DNA of 60,356 nt from a bacterium. Lineage in GTDB: Bacteria > Patescibacteriota > Minisyncoccia > Phycocordibacterales > PALSA-1337. The position numbers were made by a program, and so were the translations under genes. The notes beneath the pieces were generated by a model. That model saw only the letters and a list, made by a program, of their open reading frames with translations, was not told the origin of the DNA and did not search any database. Every line of letters starts with the position of its first letter. Within the stretch, counting starts at the first letter, position 1. Of the stretch, positions 10,511-53,645 are shown one piece after another. The DNA is taken from assembly GCA_025355565.1 (NCBI GenBank), contig JANXZK010000020.1, positions 1 through 60,356 on the forward strand, written 5' to 3'.

Positions 10511-10600
10511 AGGCTAACAAATAGTAGATAAAATCCTGATGAATTTTTGATAAAAATTCGATAAAAAAAGAATCAAATTTCGATAAAATATAGATAAAAA
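10511..10600 (-). promoter_or_regulatory. 11-bp periodic TTTATC array plus extended -10 (copy 1)
   Basis: GATAAA-type units at 10527, 10538, 10549, 10560, 10571, 10582, 10593; minus strand TTTATCT-N6-TG-T-TAGCCT. Confidence 0.75.
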
Positions 10601-10642
10601 CTATTTTGGACGAAAAGCTAGTGAGGACTCGTCAGATAACTG

Positions 10643-11341
10643 TTATAAATCATAGGCATCTCGGAGATGTTCGGGGGTGTCGATGATGTAGCCACGACCT
10701 GGAATATTGGCAATAAGGCTCGGTTTTCGACCGACATTGAGCTTCTTTCGTAGGTTTCGGATATGCGCTTCGACGGTATTTGAGAACGGATTGCTGTCAG
10801 CTGTCCAGACATGTTCCATGATGAGCGCACGAGAAAGAACGGTTCCTGCATGCTTCACCATGTATTCGAGCAAGCAAAATTCCTTCCGGGTGATCTTCAA
10901 TCGACGGTTGCCTCTCATGACTATGCTCCTTTCCGAATCGATCTTTAGGTCATGTATCTGGAGCGTAGGGATATCCGCTTTCCTTGGTCTACGTGAGAGC
11001 AATTTGATCCGCGCCATCAGTTCCTGGAGAGCGAAAGGTTTGGTCATGTAGTCATCAGCTCCGGACTCGAAGGCGGCGACTTTGATATCGGGATCCTCGG
11101 TCACAGAGAGGAAAATGATCGGAGTAGTCTTGCCGAGCGCACGGATCTCTCGAGTCACCGCCAGGCCGTCTTTCTTTGGCATCGAATAGTCGAGAATGAT
11201 CATGTCATGTTCAAAGCTTCTAGCCATAAATGAGCCTTCATTGCCATCATGGGCGACCTCGACAGTGTGACCCGCAGACTTTAGACCACTGCAGAGCGCT
11301 TCAGATACAGAAATGTCATCTTCGATGATGAGTATCTTCAT
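10643..11341 (-). CDS. OmpR/PhoB-family response regulator (no adjacent kinase)
   Basis: IIEDD, ILDYSMP, GADDYMTKPF, winged helix VEAHIRNLRKKL..GRGY. Confidence 0.95.
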   Translation of the reverse strand: MKILIIEDDISVSEALCSGLKSAGHTVEVAHDGNEGSFMARSFEHDMIILDYSMPKKDGLAVTREIRALGKTTPIIFLSVTEDPDIKVAAFESGADDYMTKPFALQELMARIKLLSRRPRKADIPTLQIHDLKIDSERSIVMRGNRRLKITRKEFCLLEYMVKHAGTVLSRALIMEHVWTADSNPFSNTVEAHIRNLRKKLNVGRKPSLIANIPGRGYIIDTPEHLRDAYDL

Positions 11342-11457
11342 ATTGAATTTAAGTATATGCGCATGTATACAAAATGCAAGCCTCTATTGAGTTTGTCACA
11401 CTTTCTTGGTACTATATGGGGCACAATCTCTTATAAACTAAGTGTAATTTTTATACC

Positions 11458-11925
11458 ATGCCTACAGATGTACAATATCTAACCAGTGAAAAGCGCGCAG
11501 AGTTAGAAAAAGAATTAAATTTTCTCAAGAGCGAGAGGCGCAAAGAGGTCGCTGAACATTTAGAATATTCAAAAAAGCTTGGCGATCTTTCGGAGAACGC
11601 CGAATATCATCAGGCTCGCGAAGAGCAAGCTCTGGTCGAGGACCGTATCTCGAGATTGGAGACTCTATTGAAGAGCGCTGTCATGATCGGTGAAGGAGGG
11701 AAAGAGATGGTAACGATCGGTTCAACATTCCGATTGCAGAAAGACGGTGATAACAAGTCGTATATATATACCATTGTCGGATCAGAAGAGGCTGATATGA
11801 CTCATGGCAAGATATCGAACATTTCTCCACTCGGATCTGCTCTCCTTGGTCATAAAAAAGGTGAGAAAGTAAAAGTGGTGACTCCAAAAGGAACGATAGA
11901 GTACACGATAGTTATTATAAAATAA
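11458..11925 (+). CDS. greA: Transcription elongation factor GreA
   Basis: GDLSENAEY, SPLGSALLG. Confidence 0.97.
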   Translation: MPTDVQYLTSEKRAELEKELNFLKSERRKEVAEHLEYSKKLGDLSENAEYHQAREEQALVEDRISRLETLLKSAVMIGEGGKEMVTIGSTFRLQKDGDNKSYIYTIVGSEEADMTHGKISNISPLGSALLGHKKGEKVKVVTPKGTIEYTIVIIK

Positions 11926-11984
11926 AGTAAACAGTAAACCGAATATTGTGATTACCGATTACTGTATACTGATATCTAATCCAA

Positions 11985-13487
11985 ATGGCATCGATCGATG
12001 AACTTCGCACAACTAGATTGAATAAATTGGCATTACTAGAAAAGGCTGGAATGGATCCTTATCCAGCTAAAGTGCCACGAAGTTTTTGTCTCGAGGATGC
12101 AAAGAAGGATTTTGCGCAATTCGAAAAGTCGGCGGAGAAGGTATCTCTGTGTGGACGCATCATGGCCATCCGCGGACAAGGCGCTATCTTGTTCCTAGTG
12201 CTCGATGATGGAAAAGCGGCTTTTCAAGCAGTCATCAAGAAAGACGTTCTGGATGTAAGATTGTTCGAGTTGTTTACTGCGACTATCGATATCGGTGATA
12301 TCGTCAGTGTCACTGGGACATTCATGACTACTCAAAGAGGTGAACAGAGCATTTTGGTCACATCATGGACTATCGCTGTCAAGGCACTGTTGCCACTACC
12401 AGAAAAGTGGCACGGTCTCACTGATCCTGATGAGAAATTCCGCAAGAGATATCTAGATTTCATCATGGACAAAGCGGCGCGCGACATATTCTATAAAAAG
12501 GCCAAATTCTGGGAAGTTGTACGCACGATCATGAAAGAAGAGGGTTTTTTGGAAGTCGAGACACCGACTCTGGAGACGACGACGGGTGGCGCGGAAGCTA
12601 CTCCATTCAAGACGCATCACAATGATCATGACATGGACGTTTTCCTGCGTATTTCTGTCGGAGAATTGTGGCAAAAGAGGCTCATGGCTGGAGGTTTCCC
12701 AAAAACATTTGAGATCGGTCGTGTCTACAGGAATGAAGGTTCGAGCCCTGAACATATGCAGGAGTTCACAAATCTCGAATTTTACTGGTCATACGCGGAT
12801 TATAACGACGGTATGGAGTTTGTGACCAGGATGTATCGGCGCATCGCCACGGAAGTCTTTGGCACCACCAAGTTTACGTACAAGGAGCACACTTTCGACC
12901 TGGCAGATGAATGGGTGAAGATAGACTATGCTCTAGAGATCTTGAAGCAGACAAACATCGATATACACAAAGCTACTGATGAGGAGATCGTCGAAAGGTT
13001 GCGATCATTGAAAGTAGGGTATGATGGCTTGAACCGTGAACGTCTCGTTGATACGTTATGGAAATATTGTCGCAAGAACATCGCTGGTCCGGCATTCCTG
13101 ATCAATCATCCTGTACTCGTCGCACCGCTCGCAAAGAGGGTGAGTGAAGCTGGATCAAAAATAATGAATGAAAATGGTGGAAATGGATATAGTGGAGTTG
13201 TGCAGATGTTTCAACCGATCATTGCCGGCTCCGAGATCGGTCGTGGTTATTCGGAACTGAATGACCCGATAGATCAGCGCAAACGTTTTGAAGATCAGGC
13301 GAGATTATTGAAAGGCGGCGATACAGAAGCGATGATGGCAGATGATGAATTCGTAGAGATGCTCGAACACGGTATGCCACCTACTTGTGGTTATGGTTTT
13401 GGTGAGAGGCTATTTGCGGTGTTGACTAACAAGCCGCTACGCGAGGTTACGATGTTTCCACTGATGAAAGGTAAGGGGAAGGAGTGA
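11985..13487 (+). CDS. lysS: Lysine-tRNA ligase (class II)
   Basis: OB fold, GGAEATPF, YRNEG, HGMPPTCGYGFGERL. Confidence 0.97.
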   Translation: MASIDELRTTRLNKLALLEKAGMDPYPAKVPRSFCLEDAKKDFAQFEKSAEKVSLCGRIMAIRGQGAILFLVLDDGKAAFQAVIKKDVLDVRLFELFTATIDIGDIVSVTGTFMTTQRGEQSILVTSWTIAVKALLPLPEKWHGLTDPDEKFRKRYLDFIMDKAARDIFYKKAKFWEVVRTIMKEEGFLEVETPTLETTTGGAEATPFKTHHNDHDMDVFLRISVGELWQKRLMAGGFPKTFEIGRVYRNEGSSPEHMQEFTNLEFYWSYADYNDGMEFVTRMYRRIATEVFGTTKFTYKEHTFDLADEWVKIDYALEILKQTNIDIHKATDEEIVERLRSLKVGYDGLNRERLVDTLWKYCRKNIAGPAFLINHPVLVAPLAKRVSEAGSKIMNENGGNGYSGVVQMFQPIIAGSEIGRGYSELNDPIDQRKRFEDQARLLKGGDTEAMMADDEFVEMLEHGMPPTCGYGFGERLFAVLTNKPLREVTMFPLMKGKGKE

Positions 13488-13566
13488 TCAGTATACAATA
13501 AACAGTAATCTGAAATCGGATAGTTATACACAGTCAAATGTTTGTGAGAGGTGTTATAATTTCATC

Positions 13567-16389
13567 ATGAAAAAAGATGATGGATATGTTGCTGCATTGA
13601 TCGCTGCCACACTCCTTCTCGTCGTCATTCTAGTCGGATCCATCAAGTTCGTGATCGCTCAATCTAGTTCTCTGGCCGTCGCTATCGATCCACGAACACA
13701 GACAGCTCAAGTATCTGGAGCGGTCGGTAATGTCTATAATTTGCCATGTCCTTCTTCGAAGAATCTGTACTCGGTGATGGTAAATGGATTCAATGATCGC
13801 ATTGACAATGCTAGTGTCAAGGCGCCTTCCAATGCAACTACTGATCCTGCCAGGAATACAGATTTCTTGAAAAGTTGGGTTTCTGGTTTGAATTTTTCTG
13901 GTCACAGCGCCGATCACACTGGTACGGACCATTATGGATATACTCTGATAAGTCCTCGACATGCCGTGAGCGCGTGGCACCTCAATGGTTACGGTGTGTT
14001 TGTTGGACAGGATGTTATTTTTCATAGTTCTAAGGGTGATCATACAGTCAAGGTTGCTGGAATGAAACAAGTCAGCGGAACTGATATTGCGGTTGTCGTC
14101 TTTGATCAGGATTTACCACCAGATGTTGCTTACTATCCGATATTGACGAGTGACGATATGTTCACTTATGGTGTGAGAGATGTGCCAGTGATATTCTATT
14201 CTCAAACAGGAGATTTCCTCATACGAGAAGCTATCGCAACTCTCTATGGCGGCTCTAACGCTTCCGTTTCGTTGATTACATACCCTTCAGGTTCGAAATA
14301 TCGTCCATTTGGTTTTGAATTGAATGATATCTCTCAACCGAATGTGCTGACTGCGTCTGCGTATCCGGGAGATTCAGGCCGCCCAGGATTTTATCTCATC
14401 GGCAATAGCTTGGTCCTCAATTCTACACAAACTACTGGCGATATGGCACAACTTCTCGGAGCGCATGTGAGTCTGATCAACCAAACGATGACAGAGCTCG
14501 ATAGTGGTCTTTCCGTGCCAGTGACTAGTGGTTATAGGGTAACGACGCTCGGTATGTCATGTTTTACTCCATTCTCGATGACATCGATACCGGCACAAAC
14601 ATTCGATCTAAATAGCAATAACGGTTCTATGATTGGGAAGGTTGCTTATACGAGGTCAGGTGACTTTGCCTCTACTACAAATTTCACGATTGTTGGTGGA
14701 AATATTGATGATGAGTTTTCTATCGATGTTGATGGACGGCTCAGACTCGCGAATCTTTCTGCTTTCGTCGCGGCACATCGTTCCAAGTATAATCTCGCAT
14801 TAAAGATGTTTGAAGTGTGGTTGGACGGCGAGACTCGCACAGTTCAAGGGGAAGTCACCATCAATGTTTCGAATAGTGCCCCAGTTCTCGCGCCGATAGG
14901 CAACAAGTCTGTGGATGCGAATAGCAATCTGAGTTTCACGATTACCGCCACCGATCCAGACGGCGGCACTCTCACGTATTCAGCGGAGGGTTTACCATCA
15001 GGTGCGACTTTCAATGCTTCGACTGGAGCCTTTTCTTGGACACCAGTATTGGCAGAGTCTGGTAGTAGTCGTACGGTAACTTTTAAGGTCGATGATTCCC
15101 TGGGATCAATAGATTCGGGGACTGTTACGTTGTCGGTTAGTCTTGGTCGTTATAGTATACGTACGGTACCGATTGTGATTTCCGCGATATCTGCAGGTAC
15201 TCCGGGACGAACTTCCGCCACTATCACCTGGACAACTGATAAAACATCTTCGTCAAAGGTTGAATATGGTCTGACCAATGCATATGGGAGTAGTACGGCT
15301 ATCAGTTATACGTGGGTTAAATCGCATAGCCAGACTCTGTCAAATCTGTTGTCACATACGACATACCATTTCCGCGTGTCATCAAATGATCCCGTAAATA
15401 ATGCGCCAAATATATCCGCTGATCAGACGTTTACCACCGCCGCCGATCCTATTGTCGAAACGATTGTACCAGACGTAACTGCGCCTGTCGTCACTCCGCC
15501 ACCACCGGATGTCACCTCGCCAATCGTCACTTTGCCAAATAGATCGCCCGTCGCCGACGCTGGACTGAATATTTCTACTACCATACCTGCATCCGCTAGC
15601 CTGTCAGCTTCAGCTTCATCCGATCCGGATGGTGATGTACTCACATATTCTTGGTCGAAGGTTTCGGGTCCTGGTACAGTGACATTCTCCAATATTTCGA
15701 ACGTTTCCACAGCTGTCACTTTTTCAGAGGCGGGAACATATGTTCTAGAAGTTAGAGTTTCTGATGGATCTCTAAACTCTACAGATCGCGTGAATGTGAC
15801 TGCAAATCTGGTTCCAGTTACAACGTACACTCTGACAGCCTCGGCAGGTTCTCACGGTTCTATCAGTCCTCTCGGCGCCACGACGGTGAATTCCGGAGGC
15901 AGTCAAGTTTATGTCGTCACTCCAGCGACAGGATATCAGGTTGCGAATGTGACCGTAGACGGGTCCTTGGTGTCCTTGTTGAATAGTAAGTACACATTTG
16001 CCAATGTTACCGCCAGTCACAGTATTTCCGTAAGCTTTACGCAGGTTGTCGTTCCGCAACCGCCATATGTCCCGACTCCGGTCGTTAATCAGGTGCCAAA
16101 TCCAACATCATCGCAGGCAGACGACTCATCGGACATCGTGACGCAAAATTTCGTGTCATCGCCCGCGCCCAAGGCCACCAATGCTTCGACGACCGACCCT
16201 ATCTATGAACTTTCCTTATTGACTGCCACGTCCACAGATTTGAATTTTACCGATCCGCCAACTCTGTCAGAATTTGTAGCCTCATTTGTTACAGAAAAGT
16301 TTGATAAGGTAGTTTCCACAATTCGATATGTTATTGATAAAGTTGTAAGTGGTTTGAGTTATACGATGTCGTCACCGAGTACAGAGTAG
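13567..16389 (+). CDS. Surface/secreted trypsin-like serine protease with cadherin/Ig/FN3/PKD-like stalk
   Basis: N-terminal TM; LISPRHAVSAWH, TDIAVV, GDSGRP triad; ATDPDG, YHFRVSS, PVADAG..SDPDGD..YSW; Pro/Thr linkers. Confidence 0.8.
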   Translation: MKKDDGYVAALIAATLLLVVILVGSIKFVIAQSSSLAVAIDPRTQTAQVSGAVGNVYNLPCPSSKNLYSVMVNGFNDRIDNASVKAPSNATTDPARNTDFLKSWVSGLNFSGHSADHTGTDHYGYTLISPRHAVSAWHLNGYGVFVGQDVIFHSSKGDHTVKVAGMKQVSGTDIAVVVFDQDLPPDVAYYPILTSDDMFTYGVRDVPVIFYSQTGDFLIREAIATLYGGSNASVSLITYPSGSKYRPFGFELNDISQPNVLTASAYPGDSGRPGFYLIGNSLVLNSTQTTGDMAQLLGAHVSLINQTMTELDSGLSVPVTSGYRVTTLGMSCFTPFSMTSIPAQTFDLNSNNGSMIGKVAYTRSGDFASTTNFTIVGGNIDDEFSIDVDGRLRLANLSAFVAAHRSKYNLALKMFEVWLDGETRTVQGEVTINVSNSAPVLAPIGNKSVDANSNLSFTITATDPDGGTLTYSAEGLPSGATFNASTGAFSWTPVLAESGSSRTVTFKVDDSLGSIDSGTVTLSVSLGRYSIRTVPIVISAISAGTPGRTSATITWTTDKTSSSKVEYGLTNAYGSSTAISYTWVKSHSQTLSNLLSHTTYHFRVSSNDPVNNAPNISADQTFTTAADPIVETIVPDVTAPVVTPPPPDVTSPIVTLPNRSPVADAGLNISTTIPASASLSASASSDPDGDVLTYSWSKVSGPGTVTFSNISNVSTAVTFSEAGTYVLEVRVSDGSLNSTDRVNVTANLVPVTTYTLTASAGSHGSISPLGATTVNSGGSQVYVVTPATGYQVANVTVDGSLVSLLNSKYTFANVTASHSISVSFTQVVVPQPPYVPTPVVNQVPNPTSSQADDSSDIVTQNFVSSPAPKATNASTTDPIYELSLLTATSTDLNFTDPPTLSEFVASFVTEKFDKVVSTIRYVIDKVVSGLSYTMSSPSTE

Positions 16390-16394
16390 TAATG

Positions 16395-16480
16395 TTATCA
16401 ACAGGTTATCCACTGTTATTTTATTGTGTATTCATATTGAGGTGGGATATAATATCCATCAAGTGGGATGAAGTGGATAA
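16395..16480 (+). promoter_or_regulatory. mraZ promoter with GTGG(G) MraZ-type boxes and DnaA-box-like 9-mers
   Basis: GTGG at 16442, 16463, 16473; TTATCAACA 16395, TTATCCACT 16406. Confidence 0.6.
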
Positions 16481-16544
16481 GGTCATTTTCTCATAATTTA
16501 AATATTTTGAAGGAAAGCCGAACCATTTCACTCGCGAAAACAAA

Positions 16545-16988
16545 ATGCTTATCGGCGAATTCCGACATACTATCGACGACAAGAACCGCCTATCGCTTCC
16601 TGCAAAATTCCGAAAGGAAATGGGGAAGACGGTGGTTGTAACCCCTGGTCTCGATTCCTGTCTCTTCATCTTTACGATGAAAGAATGGGAGAAGATCTCA
16701 GGGAGACTGTCGGCCGGAGATTCCTCGATGCTGCAGGCGGACAATCGAGGTTTCAATCGTTACCTCCTGGGAGGAGCAGTTGAAGCCGAGGTTGATGCAG
16801 CTGGCAGAATGTTATTGCCAGAGTATATCCGAGAGCGTGCCAAGCTCGAGAGCAATAAGGTGGTATTTATCGGAGTCGGTGATCGCGCGGAACTCTGGGA
16901 TGAGAAGGTGTGGGATGTGTACCGAGCCGAGGTTGAGAACAGGGCTGGTACATTAGCAGAAAAGCTCGGAGCAGCTGGAGTCAAATGA
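16545..16988 (+). CDS. mraZ: MraZ
   Basis: IDDKNRLSLP and VDAAGRMLLP repeats; upstream of rsmH. Confidence 0.95.
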   Translation: MLIGEFRHTIDDKNRLSLPAKFRKEMGKTVVVTPGLDSCLFIFTMKEWEKISGRLSAGDSSMLQADNRGFNRYLLGGAVEAEVDAAGRMLLPEYIRERAKLESNKVVFIGVGDRAELWDEKVWDVYRAEVENRAGTLAEKLGAAGVK

Positions 16989-17992
16989 TCATGCAAGCAG
17001 ACAATAGAGAGAAAGAAGCAGATCACGTCGCGAAGAGCATACATGAGCCAGTTCTTTTACAAGAAGTGATCGGGGGTTTGATAGAGGAGTCTGAATCATC
17101 TGGATCTAAAACTTCCAATATTCGATATCCAATATCCGGTCCATGGTATTTGGATGGAACACTAGGCGGTGCAGGACATGCTATAGCGATCGCCCGGGCA
17201 CTAGATGGAGATATGAATGTGATCGGGTTGGATCGAGACATCCAAGCGATCGATAGGGCACGCATCATATTGCCAGGCTCGGTAAATGGAAAGATCGTTC
17301 TCGAATGTGAGAACTTCCGTAACCTGGATAAAGTCCTTGAGACACACGGTATCTCAAGTGTAGACATGATCCTCCTAGACCTTGGTTTCTCATCTGATGA
17401 ATTGGAATCGTCCGAGAGAGGATTTTCATTTCAGAGAGATGAGCCACTACTCATGACTATGGGTGATCCGCATAGGCATCTCTTTACAGCTAGAGATATA
17501 GTCAATGGTTGGACAGAAGAGGATATCGCGAATGTGATATTTGGATACGGAGAAGAGAGATTCGCGAGGAGGATAGCGAGAGCTATCGTGAATTATAGAG
17601 CAAAGAAGAGGGTCGAGACGACATTTGAGTTGGTAGAGATCGTGAAGATGTCAGTTCCAGGATTTTACAGGAGAGGGAAGATAAATCCAGCCACAAAAAC
17701 ATTTCAAGCATTGCGTATCGCGGTCAATGATGAGTTGAATGCACTCAAGGATGGTTTGAAAAAAGGTTATGAAGCTTTGAATGATGGCGGACGCATGGGT
17801 GTGATCTCGTTTCATAGTTTAGAAGACAAGATAGTAAAAGATTTTTATAAAGAAAAAGCTATAGAGGGAGCAAATATCATCACAAAAAAACCAACGATCG
17901 CGAGTGATGAGGAGAGAGCAGTGAATCCACGGTCTAGAAGCGCGAAGTTGAGGATAATAGAGAAAAAATTTAATGAAATATCAAATAAATGA
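16985..17992 (+). CDS. rsmH: 16S rRNA m4C1402 methyltransferase
   Basis: HEPVL, DGTLGGAGH, FQALRIAVN, ISFHSLED, NPRSRSAKLR. Confidence 0.97.
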   Translation: MIMQADNREKEADHVAKSIHEPVLLQEVIGGLIEESESSGSKTSNIRYPISGPWYLDGTLGGAGHAIAIARALDGDMNVIGLDRDIQAIDRARIILPGSVNGKIVLECENFRNLDKVLETHGISSVDMILLDLGFSSDELESSERGFSFQRDEPLLMTMGDPHRHLFTARDIVNGWTEEDIANVIFGYGEERFARRIARAIVNYRAKKRVETTFELVEIVKMSVPGFYRRGKINPATKTFQALRIAVNDELNALKDGLKKGYEALNDGGRMGVISFHSLEDKIVKDFYKEKAIEGANIITKKPTIASDEERAVNPRSRSAKLRIIEKKFNEISNK

Positions 17993-18324
17993 CAAAAACA
18001 TTGATAAATACATACAATATAGCGAATGAATATAGGAGACATCTCATCTATGTTCTGATTTTCGGGTGTGCGCTAATGGTTGGTATATATATATTCAATG
18101 TGTATAGAGTTATCGCCACTACGATAGCATTGCAGAAGATCGAAACCCAATTGATTGCGACGGAGAATCAGGTTCAGAGTCTCGATTCCAGATATTTGGG
18201 CCTTTCTAGCCAGATCACACCAGATACTCTATCGAAACATGGCTTCACGACGGGCAAAGTCAGTCTCTATATCCCTCGCAATGCATCACTGGGTCGCGTA
18301 GCTTTAGTTGGACATGAATTATAG
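17989..18324 (+). CDS. FtsL-like cell division protein
   Basis: TM plus coiled coil, located between rsmH and the PBP gene. Confidence 0.65.
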   Translation: MTKTLINTYNIANEYRRHLIYVLIFGCALMVGIYIFNVYRVIATTIALQKIETQLIATENQVQSLDSRYLGLSSQITPDTLSKHGFTTGKVSLYIPRNASLGRVALVGHEL

Positions 18325-21570: not shown

Positions 21571-21579
21571 TTCATTCAC

Positions 21580-35632: not shown

Positions 35633-35742
35633 TTTATCAGAATTTTATCCAAATTTTATCTTTTTTTTATCGAAATTTGATTCTTTTTTTATCGAAATTT
35701 TATCAAAAATTCATTAGAAATTTATCTCCCGTCTGATAGAGT
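35633..35742 (+). promoter_or_regulatory. 11-bp periodic TTTATC array plus extended -10 (copy 2)
   Basis: Nine units ending 35638, 35649, 35660, 35671, 35682, 35693, 35704, 35715, 35726; TTTATCT-N6-TG-A-TAGAGT. Confidence 0.8.
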
Positions 35743-35773
35743 GGCGGTATTAGTAGAAGTTAATGTAGAGATT

Positions 35774-35859
35774 GTAACCAGTAGCCTGTAATCAGTAAAC
35801 AGAAGAATCTAAGTTGTAACTTTCTGATTTCTGTTTACTGATTACAGGCTACTGGTTAC
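35774..35859. repeat. Perfect 31-bp inverted repeat built from 7-mer units
   Basis: GTAACCAGTAGCCTGTAATCAGTAAACAGAA (35774-35804) and its exact reverse complement (35829-35859). Confidence 0.92.
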
Positions 35860-35874
35860 CGATTTCTAAAAAAT

Positions 35875-36090
35875 ATGTCATTAGACCAAAAAGATCTTGA
35901 GTTGATCGAGAGTATCGTCTACAAGAATGCTGACGACATCGCCGTCTCTATCGCGCGCAGTTTCGAGCGTCTCGAGGAACGTATCGACTCCACAGAGTCG
36001 CGGTTATATTCACGGTTAGCGGCGATCGATGATCTCACGAGTGAGGTGAGGGAGTTAGTGAAGGGGATTGATGAAGTGGATCTGGATTGA
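35875..36090 (+). CDS. Small acidic coiled-coil hypothetical protein
   Basis: 71 aa; ATG downstream of the promoter array and hairpin. Confidence 0.7.
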   Translation: MSLDQKDLELIESIVYKNADDIAVSIARSFERLEERIDSTESRLYSRLAAIDDLTSEVRELVKGIDEVDLD

Positions 36091-42356: not shown

Positions 42357-42359
42357 AAT

Positions 42360-45006: not shown

Positions 45007-45680
45007 TTAGCGCGGCGTTCTAAAAGTGAATTTGAAATCTTTGAAATAGATTTTCTCATCTTTATCCGGTGCCCATGTCAGATCATTTCCACCGAAGAAT
45101 ACTGCGAATTTGAATGAATCAATACCAAACGAATCATCGTTTCTAAACCGTAGAGTAAGATTGCAGACTTCCTCGTCATCAAACCACGATATCAATTTTC
45201 CATCATCCTTAGCCGGTGTGTTCATTTTTATGTATGTTTTCATTGTGTGCCACACATCAGGCGTCAGATATGCTCTATCTTCTTGATGTGCTTTCAAAGT
45301 ATTCCATTCTTTCCACATTTGAGAAGTAATCGGAACTTGTTTATTTAGAGCTTTCGTCCAGATAAAATCTTGACCCCATTGCTTCGTTGCATCCTTGCCC
45401 TCGAAATAGACATACTGCGTCATCATACCTAACTCTCGCCACATGACTCGTGCAGAAAATCCACTGGGCGTATTTCTGCCACCCATCGGACTGGATCCAC
45501 CACAAAAGCCTGGCAACTTACCACCTCGCTTGAAATCAAAATCGTTATCGACTCTGACTTTGTATTCAACTGTAGCTTCATTATATGTTTTACCAAATCG
45601 CGCGCCCCACGAAGTGCCTCCAATCTCTGGACCCGTTTGTCCCTTTAAGCAGGTGACACAGAGAACGTTTTCTTTGTCTA
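45007..45680 (-). pseudogene. Polysaccharide lyase (PL14-like) interrupted by IS630
   Basis: Frame open up to the IS: DKENVL..FDFKRGGKLPG..GFSARVMWR..FFGG; continues in frame beyond 46788. Confidence 0.75.
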
Positions 45681-46787
45681 CTGACCTTCACCCAACTCCC
45701 GTCTAATATGGTATGATGTAGGGATGAAAACATCCCATCACCACCCTTCCCGAGCCATGTCCCAGGATGAGCTCGAGAAGCGCCGTATGAAGGCGGCAGG
45801 TTACTTCAAATCTGGGGAAACAAACGGTTGGATATGCAAAAAGCTCGGTGTGACACACGGATCGGTGACAGAGTGGCATGCGAAATGGAAAGAAGGTGGC
45901 ACAGATGCCCTCCTTCAAGGTAAATACGGCAGGGTCTCCAAGTTGTCTCCTGAACAGGAGAAACAGATCCAGGAAGATATCTTGAAAGGCGCCAAGGAAT
46001 GCGGCTACGACACTGACTACTGGAGCCTCCGCCGATTAACAGACTACATCAAAAAGGAAACGAATATTTCATACAGAGATCGGTCGGTTTGGCATACACT
46101 AGAACGCTTTGGATTTTCATGTCAGAAACCAGCAAGGAGGGCGCGCGAACGCGATGAAAAAGCGATCATGACCTGGTTGAAGACAACGTGGCCTGCGACT
46201 AAAAAGGGGGTCTCAAAAACAAAGCAACCTTTGGCTTTTTCGACGAATCAGGGGTAACTGACAAACCACCAGTGCGTACTACATGGGGCAAGAAGGGGGT
46301 AACACCGATCACCATATCGGCTGGAGGGTGGAAGCATCTCACACTCCTTGGAATGATCACCTGGAATTCAAAAGCGAGGAAGACAGGGAATCTAGCCTGG
46401 GTGAAGCATGGTAGCGTAAACACCGAGACGATCCTCGGCGTGCTTGCCGACATGAAAAAGAAATACGAGCACGAGGGGCGATTCATCCTCATCTGGGATG
46501 GTTTGGCTCCACATCACTCGAAGGCGGTCAAAGCAGTGATTGAAGCCAACAAAAGCTGGCTTTCCGTGCACAGATTCCCAGCCTACGCACCTGAACTCAA
46601 TCCGCAGGAGTACCAGTGGTCGTCACTCAAACGAAAAGACCTCGGTAACTACTGCCCGCCCACCATGAAAGACCTTGCCACAAAAGTCAGGAAGGGACTC
46701 CAGAGAATGAAGAGGTCGACATCAATATTGAAAGGATTCATGGTCAAATCAGGGCTGTGGTCAAGACGGGAGTTGGGTGAAGGTCAG
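45681..46787 (+). mobile_element. IS630-family insertion sequence
   Basis: Perfect 24-bp TIRs CTGACCTTCACCCAACTCCCGTCT, TA duplication, two-frame transposase. Confidence 0.95.
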
Positions 46788-46790
46788 TAG
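45724..46790 (+). CDS. IS630 transposase (HTH + DDE) with probable -1 frameshift at 46201-46210
   Basis: AAAAAGGGGG links WPATKKG to LKNKATFGFFDESG; IWDG..HH, YAPELNPQE. Confidence 0.9.
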
Positions 46791-46879
46791 TATTGTGCTT
46801 GACCCACCTTCCCATTCGCGCACAAATTCCCGCGGTTTTGAAGAGACATTATAAAACGGCGTGGATTGCTCCCTTAAAA

Positions 46880-47212
46880 TTACAGATCAAATAAAAATCT
46901 TATCCCAATCCCAAATAGAATTGAAAATATATTTGCTATCGCTGAAATAACGATAGATTTTTTCCAACCTACTTGAAACGCTAGGTTATACCACATTGCT
47001 TCAAGGATAAATACTCCAAGCTCTATGAAAATATAAGGTGCGTTTTGTATATACAAAAAATATATCGCTATTGGATGAGTCAGCGAGTTAATAAGTACAA
47101 TTCCAAATATCCACTGCCAAAGCTTCTTCGGCTTTTGTATGACAATAATAATCGCAGTTTCTGAAATTATGGTAACAGCATATGCGAGTAGTATTGCTTT
47201 TTCAATAAACAT
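46880..47212 (-). CDS. Small multi-TM membrane protein
   Basis: 110 aa, hydrophobic; abuts the upstream gene. Confidence 0.75.
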   Translation of the reverse strand: MFIEKAILLAYAVTIISETAIIIVIQKPKKLWQWIFGIVLINSLTHPIAIYFLYIQNAPYIFIELGVFILEAMWYNLAFQVGWKKSIVISAIANIFSILFGIGIRFLFDL

Positions 47213-48457
47213 TTATTTTTTTCTAAATGCCAAGAATCCTAAAATTCCTATTAACGCCAGAAGTGGAAGCCAAACATATATCCGCATAAGTGGATTTGAA
47301 GAGTTTACCAGCATGTCAGTTTTTTTCTCTGGTGTTGGTTCATCTAAAACTGTTGATGCTGTGTTTAGACCCCCAGTATTGTGACCGGCAAGAATTGTTG
47401 TTTTTACCAGGAATGAATCAATTTCAGCAAGTGAAGCAGAATCTCTTTTGACTATATAACTAATATCTGGGTATTTCTTTATGAATTGGAGTGCTTTCTG
47501 GTTGAAATCATCAAAATCTTTTTTATGAGACGAAACAAATGTGTCAAAAGTAGATTTGCACCCTTGCGTCTCAATTTGAGATAAATCCCATCGTACAAAA
47601 TCCACTTGTGGTGTTTGTACGCCAGAATTTTCATGTGTCCAAAAATCTGGTCGGGGTAGAGTAACAACATTTCTACCATCAGAAAATCTTGAAACGATAT
47701 TTGTTATATTAAAACCGTTGATCTCTTCGGGAAAACTGTTTGGCCTATGTTCAAGGGAAAGCTGATACTCAACACGCACTCGATTATCGCAGGAAGAAAG
47801 TGCTGAATCGAGCTTTTGAAGAAGTATATTATATGCCGTGCTTGCATTTATAAACTCCTGACTTGCTACCGCCTTCCTTCCGGGAGTCATACCCTGCACA
47901 GTACTATCGCCAGGCCCGAATTTATATGTCGTCGGTATCAGGTTGTCCAAATTAATATTTGTTCTCTCGTATGGAAAAGAAACCCATCCAAAACCGTTAG
48001 TTCCAAAATTCGATAGCTTCATACCATCAATTGTCATCCCCTCAAACAAGTTCTGGCTATACATTATATTTTGGATATCTTCACTAGATGAATGCATCGA
48101 AGTAAAATACTCAAACTCATTTTTCAGGTTCGCCATGTTGCCAGTCGTTGATTGCAGTCTGTAAAACATTCCATCCGGCGCAAATGAAAATGAATTAGTC
48201 TTAAACTCGTAACAGTTACCTGGCTCCACGATTGTCCAAGGCCGTCCAAGATGACTACCGATAGTAGACGAATAATCATATATCAAAAACCCATCGGAAA
48301 ATTCTGGGTTTGTAACACTCACACACAATATTTTACCCGGGGTAACCCATAAATCTTTGGCTTCGTAAATGCTTTGTCCGGAATCATCAGCTTTTACAGT
48401 TCTTGCCCCAACGATTAAAAGTGCCAGAACAAAAAGTAAACTCAAATATTTTTTCAT
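47213..48457 (-). CDS. Secreted protein with C-terminal membrane anchor
   Basis: Signal peptide VKA-D; C-terminal TM followed by RKK. Confidence 0.8.
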   Translation of the reverse strand: MKKYLSLLFVLALLIVGARTVKADDSGQSIYEAKDLWVTPGKILCVSVTNPEFSDGFLIYDYSSTIGSHLGRPWTIVEPGNCYEFKTNSFSFAPDGMFYRLQSTTGNMANLKNEFEYFTSMHSSSEDIQNIMYSQNLFEGMTIDGMKLSNFGTNGFGWVSFPYERTNINLDNLIPTTYKFGPGDSTVQGMTPGRKAVASQEFINASTAYNILLQKLDSALSSCDNRVRVEYQLSLEHRPNSFPEEINGFNITNIVSRFSDGRNVVTLPRPDFWTHENSGVQTPQVDFVRWDLSQIETQGCKSTFDTFVSSHKKDFDDFNQKALQFIKKYPDISYIVKRDSASLAEIDSFLVKTTILAGHNTGGLNTASTVLDEPTPEKKTDMLVNSSNPLMRIYVWLPLLALIGILGFLAFRKK

Positions 48458-48639
48458 ATATAAAATTTAATTAGTAATAATTCTTAACGAGGAATACATC
48501 GAAAAATCTTTTATTAGGTTATGGTTCTATTCTATCATTTCCTGTGTTTTTTCTTAATAGCCCGCCCCGCCAAAAAATCCTTGGTCGGCGCTTTGCGCCG
48601 TCCGCTTGTATCCACCGAAAAAATCGTTGAGTTCCTTAT

Positions 48640-48726
48640 TGGTGCCGAAGGTGGGACTTGAACCCACACGAGCTTGCGCTCATAGCATTTTGAGTGCTAC
48701 GTGTATGCCAATTTCACCACTTCGGC
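48640..48726 (-). tRNA. tRNA-Leu(CAA)
   Basis: GCCGAAG..TAGCA CT CAA AA TGCTA, long variable arm, encoded CCA. Confidence 0.95.
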
Positions 48727-48804
48727 AACATATGTAGTTTACTTGAAATCTGCGTAAAATCAACTCTCCACTATATTTCCGGAGTCTGCTATAATCCTAC
48801 TATC

Positions 48805-49794
48805 ATGCAGCAAAACTCGTATGTGAATAATGCGATCTTTTGGATCGAAGTGGAGAAGATCCATCCTAACCCGTATCAGCCTCGCCAAGAGTTCGATGAG
48901 GCTAAGCTCAAGGATCTATCAGAGTCGATCAGGATGTATGGTGTATTACAGCCGCTCGTCGTTACTAGAAAAGAGGTATATCACGAGGGTGCCGGCATGT
49001 CGGTCGAGTATGAGCTCATCTCCGGTGAGCGCCGTCTGCGTGCATCAAAATTGGCGAAATTGGCTCAAGTGCCAGTACTCATCAGGAATGGTGAAGAAGA
49101 TTCTTTGCTTAAACTGGAGATGGCGATCATCGAAAATCTCCAACGCGAAGATCTGAATGCTGTAGATCGTGCTAGATCGTTCGATAGGCTAGTCAAGGAA
49201 TTCAAATTGAAACAAGCTCAAGTCGCCGACAAGGTCGGAAAGAGCCGTGAATATGTTTCAAACTCGCTCCGCATCTTGACCCTACCAGATCTCATGATCA
49301 CCGCTCTCGCTGAAGGGAAGATTTCAGAAGGTCATACTAGGCCACTCCTCATGTTGACTGACAGACCAGAAGAACAATTGGTCTTGTTCAAGGAAATAAT
49401 GGCAAAGAAATTGACTGTACGCGAAGCGGAGTCGATGTCTCGACGTGTGGCGACGGAAAAGATCCGTAACAAAGGGAAATATCTCGATCCTGCGATCATG
49501 GAGATGGAAAAGTCGTTTACAGAGACATTGGGTACACGTGTCAGGATCGAGAGAGTGAAGGAAGGAGGGACTGTCGTCATCGACTTCTTTAGTCCTGATG
49601 ATCTGCGAGTATTGCTCGAAAAATTGGCGAATGGTGGCGGGGTGAAGCATGGAGAAGGAAGGAAGGAGAGTGGAGAACAAATATTGAATGACCGAACACC
49701 AATAGCTAATATTGCCGAAGACGATCGAGCGCCTATTGACGTAAAAAAAGAAGAAAATGAAGAGATCTATTCGTTGAAAGATTTTTCGTTATAA
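48805..49794 (+). CDS. parB: ParB/Spo0J partition protein
   Basis: NPYQPR, SGERRLRA, ENLQREDL; ATG 48805. Confidence 0.95.
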   Translation: MQQNSYVNNAIFWIEVEKIHPNPYQPRQEFDEAKLKDLSESIRMYGVLQPLVVTRKEVYHEGAGMSVEYELISGERRLRASKLAKLAQVPVLIRNGEEDSLLKLEMAIIENLQREDLNAVDRARSFDRLVKEFKLKQAQVADKVGKSREYVSNSLRILTLPDLMITALAEGKISEGHTRPLLMLTDRPEEQLVLFKEIMAKKLTVREAESMSRRVATEKIRNKGKYLDPAIMEMEKSFTETLGTRVRIERVKEGGTVVIDFFSPDDLRVLLEKLANGGGVKHGEGRKESGEQILNDRTPIANIAEDDRAPIDVKKEENEEIYSLKDFSL

Positions 49795-49806
49795 TTATTT
49801 TCGCTG

Positions 49807-52092
49807 TTACACTTTCTTTGCAAACCTGCTTTTTCTCACAGTTTTTGGTATAGCCAACATCTCGAGCGCGCGCTCAAGCGTTATCTCATAGACATCGTCT
49901 GGCACCTTGATGGAGCGATAATTTCCATCAGAAACTATATATGGGCCGAATCGGCCCGCCGAAGAGATGACGTCTTTGCCGGTTTTTGGATCAACACCGA
50001 GGTTACGAGGCAAGCTCAAGTATTTCATCGCGTCGGCAACACCGACTTTCGATGGATCCATAGTTTTAGGAATAGAAGCCATACGTGGTTTGATTGGGGC
50101 TGGTGCTGTTTCGATAGTCGGATTCTTGACCTTCTTAGCCCTCACCTTCTTCACTTTTGGCAATTTTACGCCCAACTGAACATACGGACCGAAGCGTCCA
50201 TTTAACACGAAAATAGGTAAGCCGCTCACGGGGTCCAAACCGATAGGTTCGTCTTTTTTGAATTCCACGCCTTCGAGGGTGAGGGCACCGTCGCAGTCAG
50301 GATATTTGGAACAGGAGAGAAACTTTCCATTACGACCTAGTTTGATATCCATGGAAGCTCCGCATTTCGGACAGATATATTTCGCATCCGCCACTCCCAG
50401 ATTGGTGATCTTGGCGGTCTTCTCCTTGGATTTCAGATCTTTTTGGAATGGTTTATAAAAATCTGACAAAGTCTTCAGATATGTTCGATCACCATTTGCT
50501 ATCTCGTCCAGTTCATTTTCCATCTCCGCGGTGAATCCATCACTGATATATGTCGGGAAATTCTCTTCGAGAAATGACGAAACTACGTCGCCGGTATCAG
50601 TTGGTTTCAGTGATTTATTAAGCTTCTCGACATATCCGCGGTCTTCGATCGTCTTCGTGATGGAAGCATATGTGGAAGGACGACCAATGCCGCGTTTTTC
50701 TAGTTCCTTGATGAGACCAGCCTCTGTGTATCGTGGAGGTGGTTCGGTGGCTTTTTCTATGGAGTCGATAGAGATGAGTTTGATCGATTCACCTTTCTCG
50801 CATTTTGGTAGAGTCACTTCTTCGCCTCTTGATTCCGGATCTGCCTTGAGCCAGCCATCAAAGATCACTCTGGACCCATTTGCTTCAAAAGAAGGAATGA
50901 TAGGATTCCCATTCTTCGTTTTTTCTCCTTGCTGTTCCATGTCCGCAACATTTGCCACGATCTTGGTTCTGGCGACTCGCGCATCCGTCATCTGAGAGGC
51001 AACGGCGCGTTGCCAGATGAGACGATACAATCTCTTTTGCTCGTCATTGTGTCCCGCGTTTTCTTTATCGAAATGCGACGGACGGATAGCTTCATGGGCT
51101 TCCTGAGCATTTTTGCTCTTTGTAGTATATTTTCTAAATGATAGATATTGTTCGCCGTAGTCCTTCTTCACGACTGCGCCGATCTGATCCAATGCCTGTT
51201 GGCCGAGATTGGTAGAGTCGGTACGCATATACGTGATGTATCCAGACTCGTAAAGTTTCTGAGCGATGCCCATAGTGCGGGAAGGCGAAAAACCCAGTCT
51301 CGAGCTGGCGGCTTGTTGCAATGTAGAAGTGATGAACGGCGCGCGTGGAGATCTCTTTTGTTCTGATTCCTCGATATCGATCACCTTCCATGATCGTTTC
51401 TTGGCGATTTCTAGGATACGATCGACCTCGGTCTTGGCGCGTGGTTCCTCGGCACATTTCAACCTGAGCTCGGCCATGTTCGCTGTATTCCACAGGCCTT
51501 CGATCACCCAATACTTTTCCGGAATGAAGGCACGGATCTCACGTTCTCGTTCCATGATGATGCGGAGGGCCGGAGATTGGACACGACCAGCTGAGAGGCC
51601 GTAGCGGACTTTCTTCCATATCAGTCCCGAGAGATCGTATCCGACGATACGATCGAGGACACGTCGAGCTTCCTGCGCTTCGCGCAAATGCTCATCGATG
51701 TCGCGCGGTTCCTTCATGGCAGTCAAGATAGCTTCTTTGGTGATCTCATGGAAAGTGATGCGCTTCATCTTCCTCACGACGCCGCTCCCCAGCCTTTCCT
51801 GCAAGACTTCGGCGATATGCCAAGCGATCGCTTCTCCTTCGCGGTCCGGGTCAGTAGCGAGTATGATCTCCGTGGCTTTTTTGGCCTCGCTCACTATATC
51901 GGCGATCACTGCTTCCTTCTTTGCCACTATCTCATAGTGAGGTATAAAACCACCTTCTATATCTATAGCTTTTTTACTAGACTTTGGCAGATCGCGGATA
52001 TGACCGACCGATGCGCGCACGACGAAACCTGGACCGAGATATTTGGTGATGGTCTTGGACTTCGAAGGGGATTCTACGATAACTAATTTCAT
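49807..52092 (-). CDS. topA: DNA topoisomerase I
   Basis: MKLVIVESPSK, DPDREGE, SAGRVQS, ITYMRTDS. Confidence 0.97.
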   Translation of the reverse strand: MKLVIVESPSKSKTITKYLGPGFVVRASVGHIRDLPKSSKKAIDIEGGFIPHYEIVAKKEAVIADIVSEAKKATEIILATDPDREGEAIAWHIAEVLQERLGSGVVRKMKRITFHEITKEAILTAMKEPRDIDEHLREAQEARRVLDRIVGYDLSGLIWKKVRYGLSAGRVQSPALRIIMEREREIRAFIPEKYWVIEGLWNTANMAELRLKCAEEPRAKTEVDRILEIAKKRSWKVIDIEESEQKRSPRAPFITSTLQQAASSRLGFSPSRTMGIAQKLYESGYITYMRTDSTNLGQQALDQIGAVVKKDYGEQYLSFRKYTTKSKNAQEAHEAIRPSHFDKENAGHNDEQKRLYRLIWQRAVASQMTDARVARTKIVANVADMEQQGEKTKNGNPIIPSFEANGSRVIFDGWLKADPESRGEEVTLPKCEKGESIKLISIDSIEKATEPPPRYTEAGLIKELEKRGIGRPSTYASITKTIEDRGYVEKLNKSLKPTDTGDVVSSFLEENFPTYISDGFTAEMENELDEIANGDRTYLKTLSDFYKPFQKDLKSKEKTAKITNLGVADAKYICPKCGASMDIKLGRNGKFLSCSKYPDCDGALTLEGVEFKKDEPIGLDPVSGLPIFVLNGRFGPYVQLGVKLPKVKKVRAKKVKNPTIETAPAPIKPRMASIPKTMDPSKVGVADAMKYLSLPRNLGVDPKTGKDVISSAGRFGPYIVSDGNYRSIKVPDDVYEITLERALEMLAIPKTVRKSRFAKKV

Positions 52093-52135
52093 TGCTGCCT
52101 TAGTATTGCATGAATGTTTTGATTTGCAAAATATC

Positions 52136-53068
52136 TCACTCCCGAGCGATCCTGTATGTGCCTTCGGTTTCAGTAATGATCCCGAACAATTCCAATCGAG
52201 TCGCGATGATGCTGAATTGTGCAGCGGATATGCCAAATTTCTCTATCAATTCTTGGGACGTGCACGGTTTGAATTGCAATTCACGCAAGATGACTTTTTG
52301 ATCCTCAGGCAGTTCTCGGAATGCCCGATCTAGAAGCAGTTCGGTACGGTCGATCATTTTTCGATCACCTTTCCTGTTGCGCCTGGTCCCATCATCATGC
52401 ACGTCTTGCCCAACATCGAATCCGAGTATCTGTAGTATGTCTTCTCCACACATGACAGGTTTCGCACCATCCGAGTATAGCGTGTGCGGACCATATGATA
52501 AGTCGGAAAATATCGACCCTGGTACGATCATCACATCACGGCTTAGATTGGCAGCATATTCGGCGGTCAATAAGGTTCCTGATTTCTTGCGACCTTCAAC
52601 GATGAGTACGGCATGAGAGATTCCCGCCATTAGCTGATTTCTCACGGGAAAAGTCCAGTTATCTCCGCCTTGGAAAGGGTCGAATGATGATAGTAGCGTA
52701 TTACCAGTCTTTACGATGTGTTTGGCGAGCTCTAGATGCTCTCGCGGGTATATGACGCTATCTTCGAGACCTGAGCCTGGGAAAGCGATCGTGCGCAGAC
52801 CATTCCGTATGGCTGCCACATGGGCGATCGAATCGATGCCCAAGGCCATACCAGAGACGATGACTATCGGATGATTCCTGAGACCGTAGATCAGTTCCTC
52901 GCATGCCCTCTTGCCGTAGTCGCTGTTTCTCCTTGCGCCGACTACACACAGGAATTTGTTTTCATCGCTCGGTATCGGTGCACCGGATATGTACATATGC
53001 GTCGGACGCATTTTCAATTGCTTCATCAGGCCAGGGTATTCGTTTGGAAATAGTTTTGTATATTGCAT
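52136..53068 (-). CDS. dprA: DNA-processing protein DprA
   Basis: VVGAR, VSGMALGID, FPVRN, SGTLLTA. Confidence 0.95.
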   Translation of the reverse strand: MQYTKLFPNEYPGLMKQLKMRPTHMYISGAPIPSDENKFLCVVGARRNSDYGKRACEELIYGLRNHPIVIVSGMALGIDSIAHVAAIRNGLRTIAFPGSGLEDSVIYPREHLELAKHIVKTGNTLLSSFDPFQGGDNWTFPVRNQLMAGISHAVLIVEGRKKSGTLLTAEYAANLSRDVMIVPGSIFSDLSYGPHTLYSDGAKPVMCGEDILQILGFDVGQDVHDDGTRRNRKGDRKMIDRTELLLDRAFRELPEDQKVILRELQFKPCTSQELIEKFGISAAQFSIIATRLELFGIITETEGTYRIARE

Positions 53069-53143
53069 TTTGCTTGACAATCGACTTCAGTTTGATAAAA
53101 TAGTGTTACTTTTCAGATACGGTTGTCGAATCCCCCAAACTAG

Positions 53144-53572
53144 TTACGGGGGATTTGATTTTATCAAGATATGGGTAAGTTGTTTACGTATCATATCAAC
53201 TTGTTGCACATCTAGTCTTCCTGCCAGCTTTAATAGACGATTGCTGCTTATAGATCTAAATTGTTGGATCGGTATATAGCCATGAATCCGGCTGCCATGT
53301 ATTTTGTGAAGATACCCGCCGTCCCGTATTACTCTCGATGTGATTGGTAGTACCCATTGTGGATCTTCACTAAACTTTCTCAATATCAGAACAGGTCGTC
53401 TATAATCGATATTTTTCCCATCAATTTCATGCCCGACATTTAGGCCGATAGAAGTCCACCAGATTTCTCCTTCAAGCACGTAGAAATTGGCGTCAAGTTT
53501 CCGTAAATTTATCTCCTTTTTCACCTCATTCCATTTGTCATATTCCTTTATGTAACGTTTTTCATTTGGCAT
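53144..53572 (-). CDS. PemK/MazF-like toxin with no adjacent antitoxin ORF
   Basis: GEIWW.SIGLNVGHEIDGK...RPVLILRK...PITS. Confidence 0.85.
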   Translation of the reverse strand: MPNEKRYIKEYDKWNEVKKEINLRKLDANFYVLEGEIWWTSIGLNVGHEIDGKNIDYRRPVLILRKFSEDPQWVLPITSRVIRDGGYLHKIHGSRIHGYIPIQQFRSISSNRLLKLAGRLDVQQVDMIRKQLTHILIKSNPP

Positions 53573-53578
53573 CCTTGA

Positions 53579-53645
53579 AACTTACCATATTAGAGATAAA
53601 ATCCTGATGAATTTTCAATAAAATTTTGATAAAATAGTTATGAAG
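53579..53645 (-). promoter_or_regulatory. 11-bp periodic TTTATC array plus extended -10 (copy 3)
   Basis: Units at 53595, 53606, 53617, 53628, 53639; minus strand TTTATCT-N6-TG-G-TAAGTT; 22 bp identical to copy 1. Confidence 0.75.

Follow-up and report, generated by a model that had tools for sequence, protein, structure and literature searches.

The stretch analysed here, referred to as the window, is a whole contig of 60,356 nucleotides (nt; JANXZK010000020.1) of an 832-kb assembly in 27 contigs that is rated 99.7% complete (G000, hence a very small genome, of a Patescibacteria bacterium), and the element in question is a promoter array of TTTATC-type hexamers repeated head to tail with a period of 11 base pairs (bp). 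Three such arrays lie in the window. Array 1 (10527-10598, minus strand, 7 units in an exact 11-bp period, 48.3 bits) is located directly 3' of a gene for an OmpR/PhoB-family response regulator and reads, from 10598 to 10527, TTTATC, TTTATC, TTGATT, TTTATC, TTTATC, TTCATC and TTTATC; it is followed by an extended -10 element (TGT TAGCCT, 10511-10519, minus), whose hexamer begins 10 bp past the last TTTATC. Array 2 (35633-35726, plus strand, 9 units, 48.0 bits) consists of four TTTATC, TTGATT, two TTTATC, TTCATT and a final TTTATC, and an extended -10 (TGA TAGAGT, 35734-35742, plus) was read from the sequence behind it. Array 3 (53595-53644, minus, 5 units, 46.7 bits) reads TTCATA, TTTATC, TTTATT, TTCATC and TTTATC from 53644 to 53595, and its extended -10 (TGG TAAGTT, 53579-53587, minus) lies 6 nt before the ATG of the next gene. 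The original prediction, made from the letters of the window, had described arrays of 7, 9 and 5 units in exact 11-bp register, with a common degenerate second unit and a shared ending TTTATCT-N6-TGnTAnnnT, and all of this was seen on reading the sequence: the penultimate (promoter-side) unit is TTCATC or TTCATT in each array, and the ending is present in three of three. A search for TTTATC-N5-TTTATC with at most one mismatch gave 10 matches in the window, every one within the three arrays, as against a mean of 0.95 in dinucleotide shuffles, none of which (0/100) reached 10, confirming that the three arrays are genuine and far above chance.

Ten arrays in the genome and their geometry

A genome-wide scan with the spaced motif, which had been proposed as a check, recovered exactly ten arrays in G000, the three of the window among them. 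Scores under a 4-unit position weight matrix are 35-50 bits for the ten arrays and 19 for the next-best stretches, one of the latter being the opposite strand of an array, and nothing in the reversed genome reaches 14 bits. An anchored nhmmer profile returned the same ten at E <= 2e-12; its other alignments are secondary matches inside the same arrays or have E >= 0.7. Aligned on the last unit, all ten keep the 11-bp register over 4-9 head-to-tail units with A/T-rich spacers. The unit core is TT[TCG]A[TA][CT], mostly TTTATC, with A at core position 4 in 97% and C at position 6 in 82% of the unit matrix, and a given variant, such as TTCATC or TTCAGC, occupies a fixed position in all arrays of a genome.

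The view that the array stands in place of the -35 element at constant spacing was borne out across the genome. The distance from the last TTTATC to the TAnnnT hexamer is 10 bp in nine of the ten arrays and 9 bp in one, eight of the ten promoters carry the TGn extension of the -10, and no -35-like hexamer was read in the alignment of the ten promoters. The arrays end upstream of the -10 and overlap neither it nor the start site in any promoter (0/10). Head-to-tail repeats of 11 bp at the -35 position likewise support the proposed direct-repeat architecture of the OmpR/PhoB type. Since in five of the ten promoters (comEC, comM, pilB, the PemK-like gene and a contig-19 open reading frame, ORF) the start codon follows 6-8 nt past the -10, their mRNAs are probably leaderless. 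No RNA sequencing run containing this DNA is listed, the runs being four DNA runs of one study, possibly the one that yielded this DNA.

Genes behind the ten arrays

The ten units are comEC, a pilin gene, pilB-pilC, comM, a PemK-like-dprA-topA operon, rpsF-ssb-rpsR, a gene for an LCAT-like protein, a gene for a 71-amino-acid protein, two small ORFs on contig 19 and an RNA unit without an ORF. Pfam domains agree with these names: Competence and DUF4131 in the comEC product, N_methyl in the prepilin, a short T2SSE ATPase with a T2SSF platform protein for pilB-pilC, Mg_chelatase/YifB for comM, and S6 and SSB in the rpsF-ssb-rpsR operon. Six of the ten array units are core natural-transformation functions. 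Four full-length T2SSE ATPases are encoded in G000 and only the short one (387 amino acids) has an array; therefore, the regulon picks a dedicated ComG-like pilus. The arrays are limited to this one functional gene set, and of the ribosomal-type promoters only that of rpsF-ssb-rpsR carries one. The HHH_3 family (ComEA) was not found in G000. This gene set supports the proposal that the arrays mark a regulon. It does not support the description of the targets as odd, which had been drawn from the three units of the window: genome-wide, the array genes are DNA-uptake and recombination machinery. Judged by gene content, the arrays are very probably the shared element of a natural-transformation (competence) regulon.

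The target described earlier as a PemK toxin illustrates this point. The first gene after array 3 (53144-53572, minus) encodes a PemK/MazF-like protein of 142 amino acids (PF02452 PemK_toxin, 36.6 bits against a cut-off of 23.1) and starts 6 nt past the -10; it is followed by dprA (52136-53080, minus; DNA_processg_A, 193 bits) and by topA, for topoisomerase I (49807-52236, minus), which overlaps the end of dprA on the same strand. Thus the PemK fold stands, but the gene is not an odd target, as it heads a dprA-topA operon and has homologs behind arrays in three other genomes. No antitoxin-sized ORF is present at 53080-53144 or upstream on that strand. In just two of 30 dprA loci, those of G000 and G075, does a PemK-like gene separate the array from dprA. 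Homologs with 34-36% identity directly follow an array in G330, which belongs to another family, and in G177, where the next gene is comEC. An accidental insertion was considered for the PemK-like gene and rejected, because of these homologs directly behind arrays in G177 and G330; on this comparative evidence it is counted here as a recurrent regulon member.

Behind array 2, the gene at 35875-36090 (plus) encodes a 71-amino-acid protein without a Pfam family, whose Atlas neighbours are unnamed Minisyncoccota clusters; it also lies behind arrays in G065, G024 and G010. Its 5' leader contains a long inverted repeat with 31-nt arms (35774-35859, plus) built of heptads with GTA every 7 nt. Of the earlier description as a hairpin-led small protein, the gene behind an array holds in four species, but the long hairpin is specific to G000, being absent from the orthologous leaders of G065, G024 and G010. 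Heptads with GTA every 7 nt are also found in the pilin leader (contig 10, L013:1918-2035, minus), where six GTA keep one register, as do six of eight in the small-protein leader (window 35742-35875). In each of the two leaders, pairing with an inverted copy makes a very long hairpin; the orthologs in G065, G024 and G010 have none.

In four species the pilin, small-protein and LCAT-like transcripts start with a shared motif, (C)ATTATTAG(T/A)A or GGTATTAGTAGA (window 35743-35760; L016, contig 26, past the array; L013 around 2035; L111, L115, L120, L123, L135 and L138). An ATTATnAAT block that resembles it follows the 5' hairpin of the small RNA described below. The shared start motif may be a second, post-transcriptional control site.

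The LCAT-like protein has 973 amino acids and its gene lies behind an array at L016:885-3806 (minus). Orthologs of about 920-970 amino acids occur in L115, L120 and L138; they are secreted-looking, combine a beta-helix with LCAT/serine-esterase domains and are a constant regulon member. As a speculation from these domains, the protein may be a lytic enzyme coupled to DNA uptake. The array-driven pilin gene is followed on its 3' side by a gene (L013:251-1294, minus) for a protein of 347 amino acids whose N-terminus is a sigma-70 region-4 domain and which also has a HARE-HTH domain, other sigma regions being absent; its place behind the pilin is taken by a D-Ala-D-Ala carboxypeptidase in G065 and G010.

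The response regulator and the RNA gene beside it

The response regulator next to array 1 (10643-11341, minus) combines a receiver (REC) domain with a winged helix (Response_reg 91 bits, Trans_reg_C 80 bits), and is the sole match to PF00486 (Trans_reg_C) in G000. The acidic pocket, D51 and K101 are conserved across 59 orthologs. The gene is flanked by those for GreA and LysRS, with no kinase adjacent to it. Its nearest solved homologs are generic OmpR-family proteins, and its solved homologs include RpaA (E = 1e-33). An ortholog is present in 87 of the 93 genomes of the genus. Sixty ortholog regions were examined, those of G094 and G041 being without a usable downstream region, and an array of at least four units lies past the regulator stop codon in 46 of the 51 species with an anchor. 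Because units vary within single arrays, they yield no species-specific code to set against the recognition helix.

What array 1 drives had been regarded as an ORF-less unit and an odd target. The region (10344-10504, minus) is instead occupied by a candidate small RNA (sRNA) without an ORF, with an unmapped 3' end that is bounded by a convergent tRNA-Phe gene (10270-10343, plus); a convergent tRNA-Phe is found in 10 of 61 regulator loci, G000 included. The sRNA begins with a 5' hairpin, AGTTATG-CGTCGA-CATAACT (10485-10504, minus), about 7 nt past the -10. A hairpin of the form GTTATG-nGTCGA-CATAAC is present past the -10 in 55 of 61 species, G000 included, and begins 6 nt past the -10 hexamer in 31 of 54. 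Its stem shows compensatory changes at five of seven pairs (for example TA to CG and GC to AT), the GTCGA loop is invariant, and U-G wobbles in the stem fall on the sRNA strand. The 161-nt stretch of G000 folds with a z-score of -4.1, and a second covarying hairpin with a GCAGG loop was recognised by eye. The 5' hairpin occurs once in the genome. A conserved covarying hairpin, such a fold score and a single genomic copy identify the ORF-less unit as a small RNA gene; as judged by these comparisons, it is a conserved gene behind an array promoter rather than an odd target.

In Rfam 15 the tRNA alone reaches the gathering score, the next matches having E >= 0.06, far below the cut-offs. Inspection by eye for pairing of the sRNA with regulon leaders gave just one 7-nt match. 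An order-wide search for the hairpin GTTATGNGTCGACATAAC with at most two mismatches gave 7 matches outside G000, all with two mismatches, and the reversed control also matched many genomes; the pattern is too strict, and it took a reading of the sequence beside regulator orthologs to find the module in other families. Next to the module, a gene for a 562-amino-acid serine recombinase (Resolvase and Recombinase domains; window 8158-9846, plus) ends within a tRNA-Arg gene (9808-9880, minus), which may be the edge of an integrated element.

Conservation within and beyond the genus

The phased pattern is found in 47 of the 93 genus genomes, and the reversed pattern gives one match in total. At comEC, 25 of 30 genus loci have four of four phased TTnAnn units in the last 130 upstream bases, as against 0 of 30 reversed sequences and 1 of 600 shuffles. 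The core drifts between species (TTTATC, TTCATC, TTCAGC, TTGAAC), with T1, T2 and A4 constant.

The array loci of three further species (G065, G024 and G010) were annotated for their downstream genes. All three have arrays before comM, pilB, the pilin gene, rpsF-ssb-rpsR, the LCAT-like gene and the gene of a small MSLDQKDLELIE protein; pilC follows pilB in G024 and G010, the G065 locus stops at a contig edge within pilB, and in G024 ssb and rpsR alone were scanned for the ribosomal operon. A Pfam-less gene of about 320 amino acids also lies behind an array in the three species; in G065 it comes after comEC with its own array, and the G000 homolog ends the pilB operon, its own array being absent. 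In some of these species an IS200-like transposase gene or a PIF1 helicase gene also has an array in front.

Over the last 44 bases, array identity is 0.73-0.84 within a genome, and between species it is 0.67 for orthologous and 0.66 for non-orthologous promoters. Identity within a genome thus exceeds that between species, and therefore spacers and variants belong to the genome and not to the locus. Such concerted evolution of the arrays would fit one trans-acting reader per genome, or gene conversion.

Beyond the genus, an evenly drawn sample of 251 genomes of the order was used. A Trans_reg_C gene is present in 88 of them, and a homolog at least 44% identical to the window regulator in 38, G000 and G341 included. 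The TTTATC pattern occurs in 14 of these 38 genomes versus 18 of the 213 others (Fisher p = 2e-5, a test in which kin are not independent and single matches are near the control rate). All six genomes with at least two pattern matches have a Trans_reg_C gene (base rate 88/251), and G025, G034 and G037 have neither the regulator nor an array at comEC. The order of regulator, array and hairpin with a GTCGA loop is kept in the sister genus G270 and, with stems that differ considerably, is also found in other families (G158, G030, G305, G182 and G310). By eye, G197 and G285, and perhaps G191, have a kinase-like gene after the regulator instead. In G224, of another family, an array stands before comM. 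Pattern matches also arise in G299 (L188, contig 25; regulator homolog 40% identical) from six perfect tandem copies of TCTTTTCTTTA, which have the look of a simple tandem repeat rather than of a promoter array.

The reader of the arrays

The original prediction named the adjacent response regulator as the cognate activator. It stands as the best candidate, being the only PF00486 protein of G000, linked to an array in 46 of 51 species and found with arrays again in other families, and from the arrays, their geometry, gene content, conservation, linkage and co-occurrence we infer that it binds and activates them in response to a signal. That this regulator is the activator reading the competence arrays is, in our judgement, rather probable. 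Phosphorylated by one of the distant kinases, the OmpR/PhoB-type protein would bind the units cooperatively as dimers, 22 bp per dimer, filling the array stepwise; the promoter-proximal subunit, placed where a -35 would be, at 10 bp from the -10, would recruit RNA polymerase (class II activation, like that at pho and CiaR boxes); and comEC, the ComG-like pilus, the pilin, comM, dprA-topA, ssb, the LCAT-like and MazF-like proteins, the small proteins and the sRNA would be switched on together.

Several points weigh against this proposal. The three sensor kinases of G000 are all on other contigs, and no kinase partner was identified. The regulator scores under all NCBIfam equivalog cut-offs (for PhoB, 166 bits where 296 are needed), and is therefore not filed as PhoB, CiaR or another named regulator. 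No array is present upstream of its own gene in G000, so that the usual positive autoregulation is not evident. Its adjacency to an array-driven RNA could reflect co-function with the RNA rather than binding of the array, and extended -10 boxes can work without an activator. By a reading of the output, only about 12 of the 30 genus loci have an array ahead of dprA, either adjoining it or across one intervening gene; on this count dprA is a less constant regulon member. A further point comes from G161 and G259, which carry well-formed arrays with the usual -10 spacing, that of G259 before a Pfam-confirmed comEC, yet have no Trans_reg_C gene or regulator homolog and show just weak REC-only matches. 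Both are 96% complete, G259 in 3 contigs, and both belong to another family than G000 and to the same genus as G330, which has arrays and regulator. Three accounts could be given of this: the regulator gene lies in the unassembled part of these genomes, it has been lost from genomes that still keep their arrays, or the arrays are read by another protein.

The last of these options leads to an alternative that we regard as unlikely, namely that the arrays are a competence element read by another protein, an uncharacterised factor or oligomers of DnaA on weak boxes spaced by 11 bp, and that the response regulator is tied to them only via the neighbouring small RNA. The arrays in G161 and G259, where any OmpR-type regulator is missing, speak for such a reader, and for DnaA in particular, the TTATC within the unit matches bases 1-5 of the DnaA box (consensus TTATCCACA), and DnaA is encoded in G000. 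However, 22 exact TTATCCACA boxes lie elsewhere in G000, with a small cluster by dnaA, and the array units mismatch box positions 6-9; the arrays were thus rejected as DnaA boxes, because their units share only TTATC with TTATCCACA. DnaA is moreover universal, yet arrays are absent at comEC in G025, G034 and G037 and enriched where the regulator ortholog is present. Against any other reader, head-to-tail hexamers with A/T spacers at 10 bp from the -10 are the signature of an OmpR/PhoB site, and no further candidate gene is linked to the arrays.

We find it quite improbable that the arrays need no factor at all and act as phased T-tracts, in the form of curved DNA or UP-like elements, at strong constitutive extended -10 promoters. 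In favour of this reading, the T-rich units are in helix phase, the TGn extension found in eight of ten promoters can dispense with a -35, and the arrays are kept in the two regulator-less genomes. Against it stand the conservation of the non-T positions (A4 and C6, at the frequencies given above), the variants such as TTCATC and TTCAGC with their fixed positions in a genome's arrays, and the restriction of the arrays to one gene set rather than to strong promoters generally.

Very improbable, in our view, is a regulator that acts as a repressor or silencer, coating the DNA upstream of self-sufficient extended -10 promoters until it is released. OmpR-family repressors acting through multiple sites are known, arrays of 4-9 units would suit coating, and an extended -10 may not need activation; but the arrays stop 10 bp before the -10 without touching it or the start in 10 of 10 promoters, which is the activator position of pho and CiaR boxes, and no -35 element is present. 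Finally, copies of a mobile or gene-converting promoter cassette, alike by copying and without a common regulator, could be expected from the higher identity within than between genomes, even at orthologous promoters, from the roughly 35 nt of identical leader shared by the promoters at window 35727 and on contig C26, and from the arrays before IS200-like transposase genes in G065 and G010, but this origin is extremely improbable given that arrays are found at the same gene families in four species and also in other bacterial families, that the spacing to the -10 is fixed, and that the ten G000 arrays have no terminal repeats, target duplications or transposase.

Comparison with known systems

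The closest known system is streptococcal CiaR with its cia-dependent small RNAs (csRNAs). As described in the cited part of the source, the site bound by CiaR is TTTAAG-N5-TTTAAG, 10 bp away from the -10, small RNAs are made from the strongest CiaR promoters, and CiaRH affects competence development by mechanisms that were then undefined (PMC3091779). As far as that description goes, both systems have hexamer direct repeats with a 5-bp spacer, an 11-bp period, a distance of 10 bp to the -10 and no -35, together with an OmpR-family regulator, small non-coding RNAs among the targets and a link to competence. On the same basis, CiaR boxes differ in having two units (TTTAAG), whereas the G000 arrays have 4-9 units of TTTATC and variants, and the uptake-machinery genes themselves carry the sites in G000, unlike under CiaRH. 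Further, the CiaH kinase adjoins CiaR, whereas the G000 regulator has no adjacent kinase and an RNA gene on its 3' side, and the G000 RNA differs in shape, with a 5'-terminal hairpin and a GUCGA loop, and has no Rfam match.

In Escherichia coli, the pho box of PhoB replaces the -35 element. In Streptomyces coelicolor, the cited part of the source reports cooperative binding of several PhoP monomers to direct repeat units of 11 nt, of which an operator holds as many as six, some of them poorly conserved (PMC2275107). The G000 arrays resemble the PhoP operators, within the scope of that account, in their 11-nt direct repeat units and complex multi-unit sites; unlike PhoP and PhoB, their targets are for DNA uptake and not phosphate scavenging, and they reach 9 units. 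The ComX and ComK boxes of Firmicutes are known elements of competence regulons. The CRP-S/Sxy sites of gamma-proteobacteria likewise define a competence regulon in the part of the source cited here (PMC1635313). The G000 arrays share with CRP-S and ComX/ComK that one cis element, visible by comparative genomics, stands before comEC, pilus genes, dprA, comM and ssb, and they differ in being direct-repeat arrays of the kind used by response regulators, in Patescibacteria, unlike CRP-S (a palindromic CRP site), ComX (a sigma-factor box of the -10 type) and ComK (AT-boxes). RpaA, an OmpR-family protein, acts upstream of natural competence in Synechococcus elongatus, according to the cited part of the report (bioRxiv 10.1101/822627). 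In contrast to the G000 regulator, RpaA is the output of the clock, is served by kinases of its own and has another type of site. We know of no phased arrays at its competence genes.

Significance

The Patescibacteria (Candidate Phyla Radiation, CPR) make up a large share of bacterial diversity, have tiny genomes and keep com genes almost universally. To our knowledge, natural competence is so far the only route to genetic manipulation of CPR bacteria, as demonstrated in Saccharibacteria. In the literature searched, supplements aside, no paper dealt with how competence is regulated in Patescibacteria or with promoter elements there. In the part of a recent source cited here, com genes are described as conserved across CPR and Saccharibacteria as naturally competent, and the reach of competence across CPR is named a key open question (PMC10633639). 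With a defined cis element, just one candidate regulator and a full target list for a genome of 832 kb, the question of control can be tested directly. The regulon also brings unexpected members to competence, a large LCAT-like enzyme, an antitoxin-less MazF-like protein, phylum-restricted small proteins and a new structured RNA, and its arrays, evolving in concert in each genome, offer a clean natural example of regulator and sites drifting together.

Taken further, the favoured activator could be a lineage-wide master switch of DNA uptake, in which one kinase-less OmpR-type regulator polymerises on the 11-bp-phased arrays and fires the whole programme, an extension that we put forward tentatively and hold to be somewhat unlikely. 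Such a programme would comprise the ComEC channel, the dedicated ComG-like pilus, recombination mediators, a lipase-like enzyme, a MazF-like RNase and the sRNA. Under this extended reading, the secreted lipase-like enzyme may lyse the host or a neighbour cell and release its DNA, the MazF-like RNase may halt bulk translation but leave the regulon mRNAs, most of them leaderless, to be translated, and the 5'-hairpin sRNA beside the regulator would, just as tentatively, feed back on the programme. If it is true, knowing the switch would make competence inducible on demand in uncultivated or newly cultivated CPR bacteria.

Transposase and tRNA genes at array loci of other species

The IS200-like (Y1_Tnp) genes behind arrays encode proteins of about 195 amino acids and were found in L112 and L118 (G065) and in L134 (G010), and possibly in L128 (G024) and L140 (G010). 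A tblastn search gave no Y1_Tnp transposase homolog in G000. A GC-rich hairpin lies between array and gene in L112, L118, L134 and L140, and none in L128. In L125 (G024, contig 24), ARAGORN recognised a tRNA-Met(cat)-like gene no more than about 50 nt past an array, and hisS comes next.

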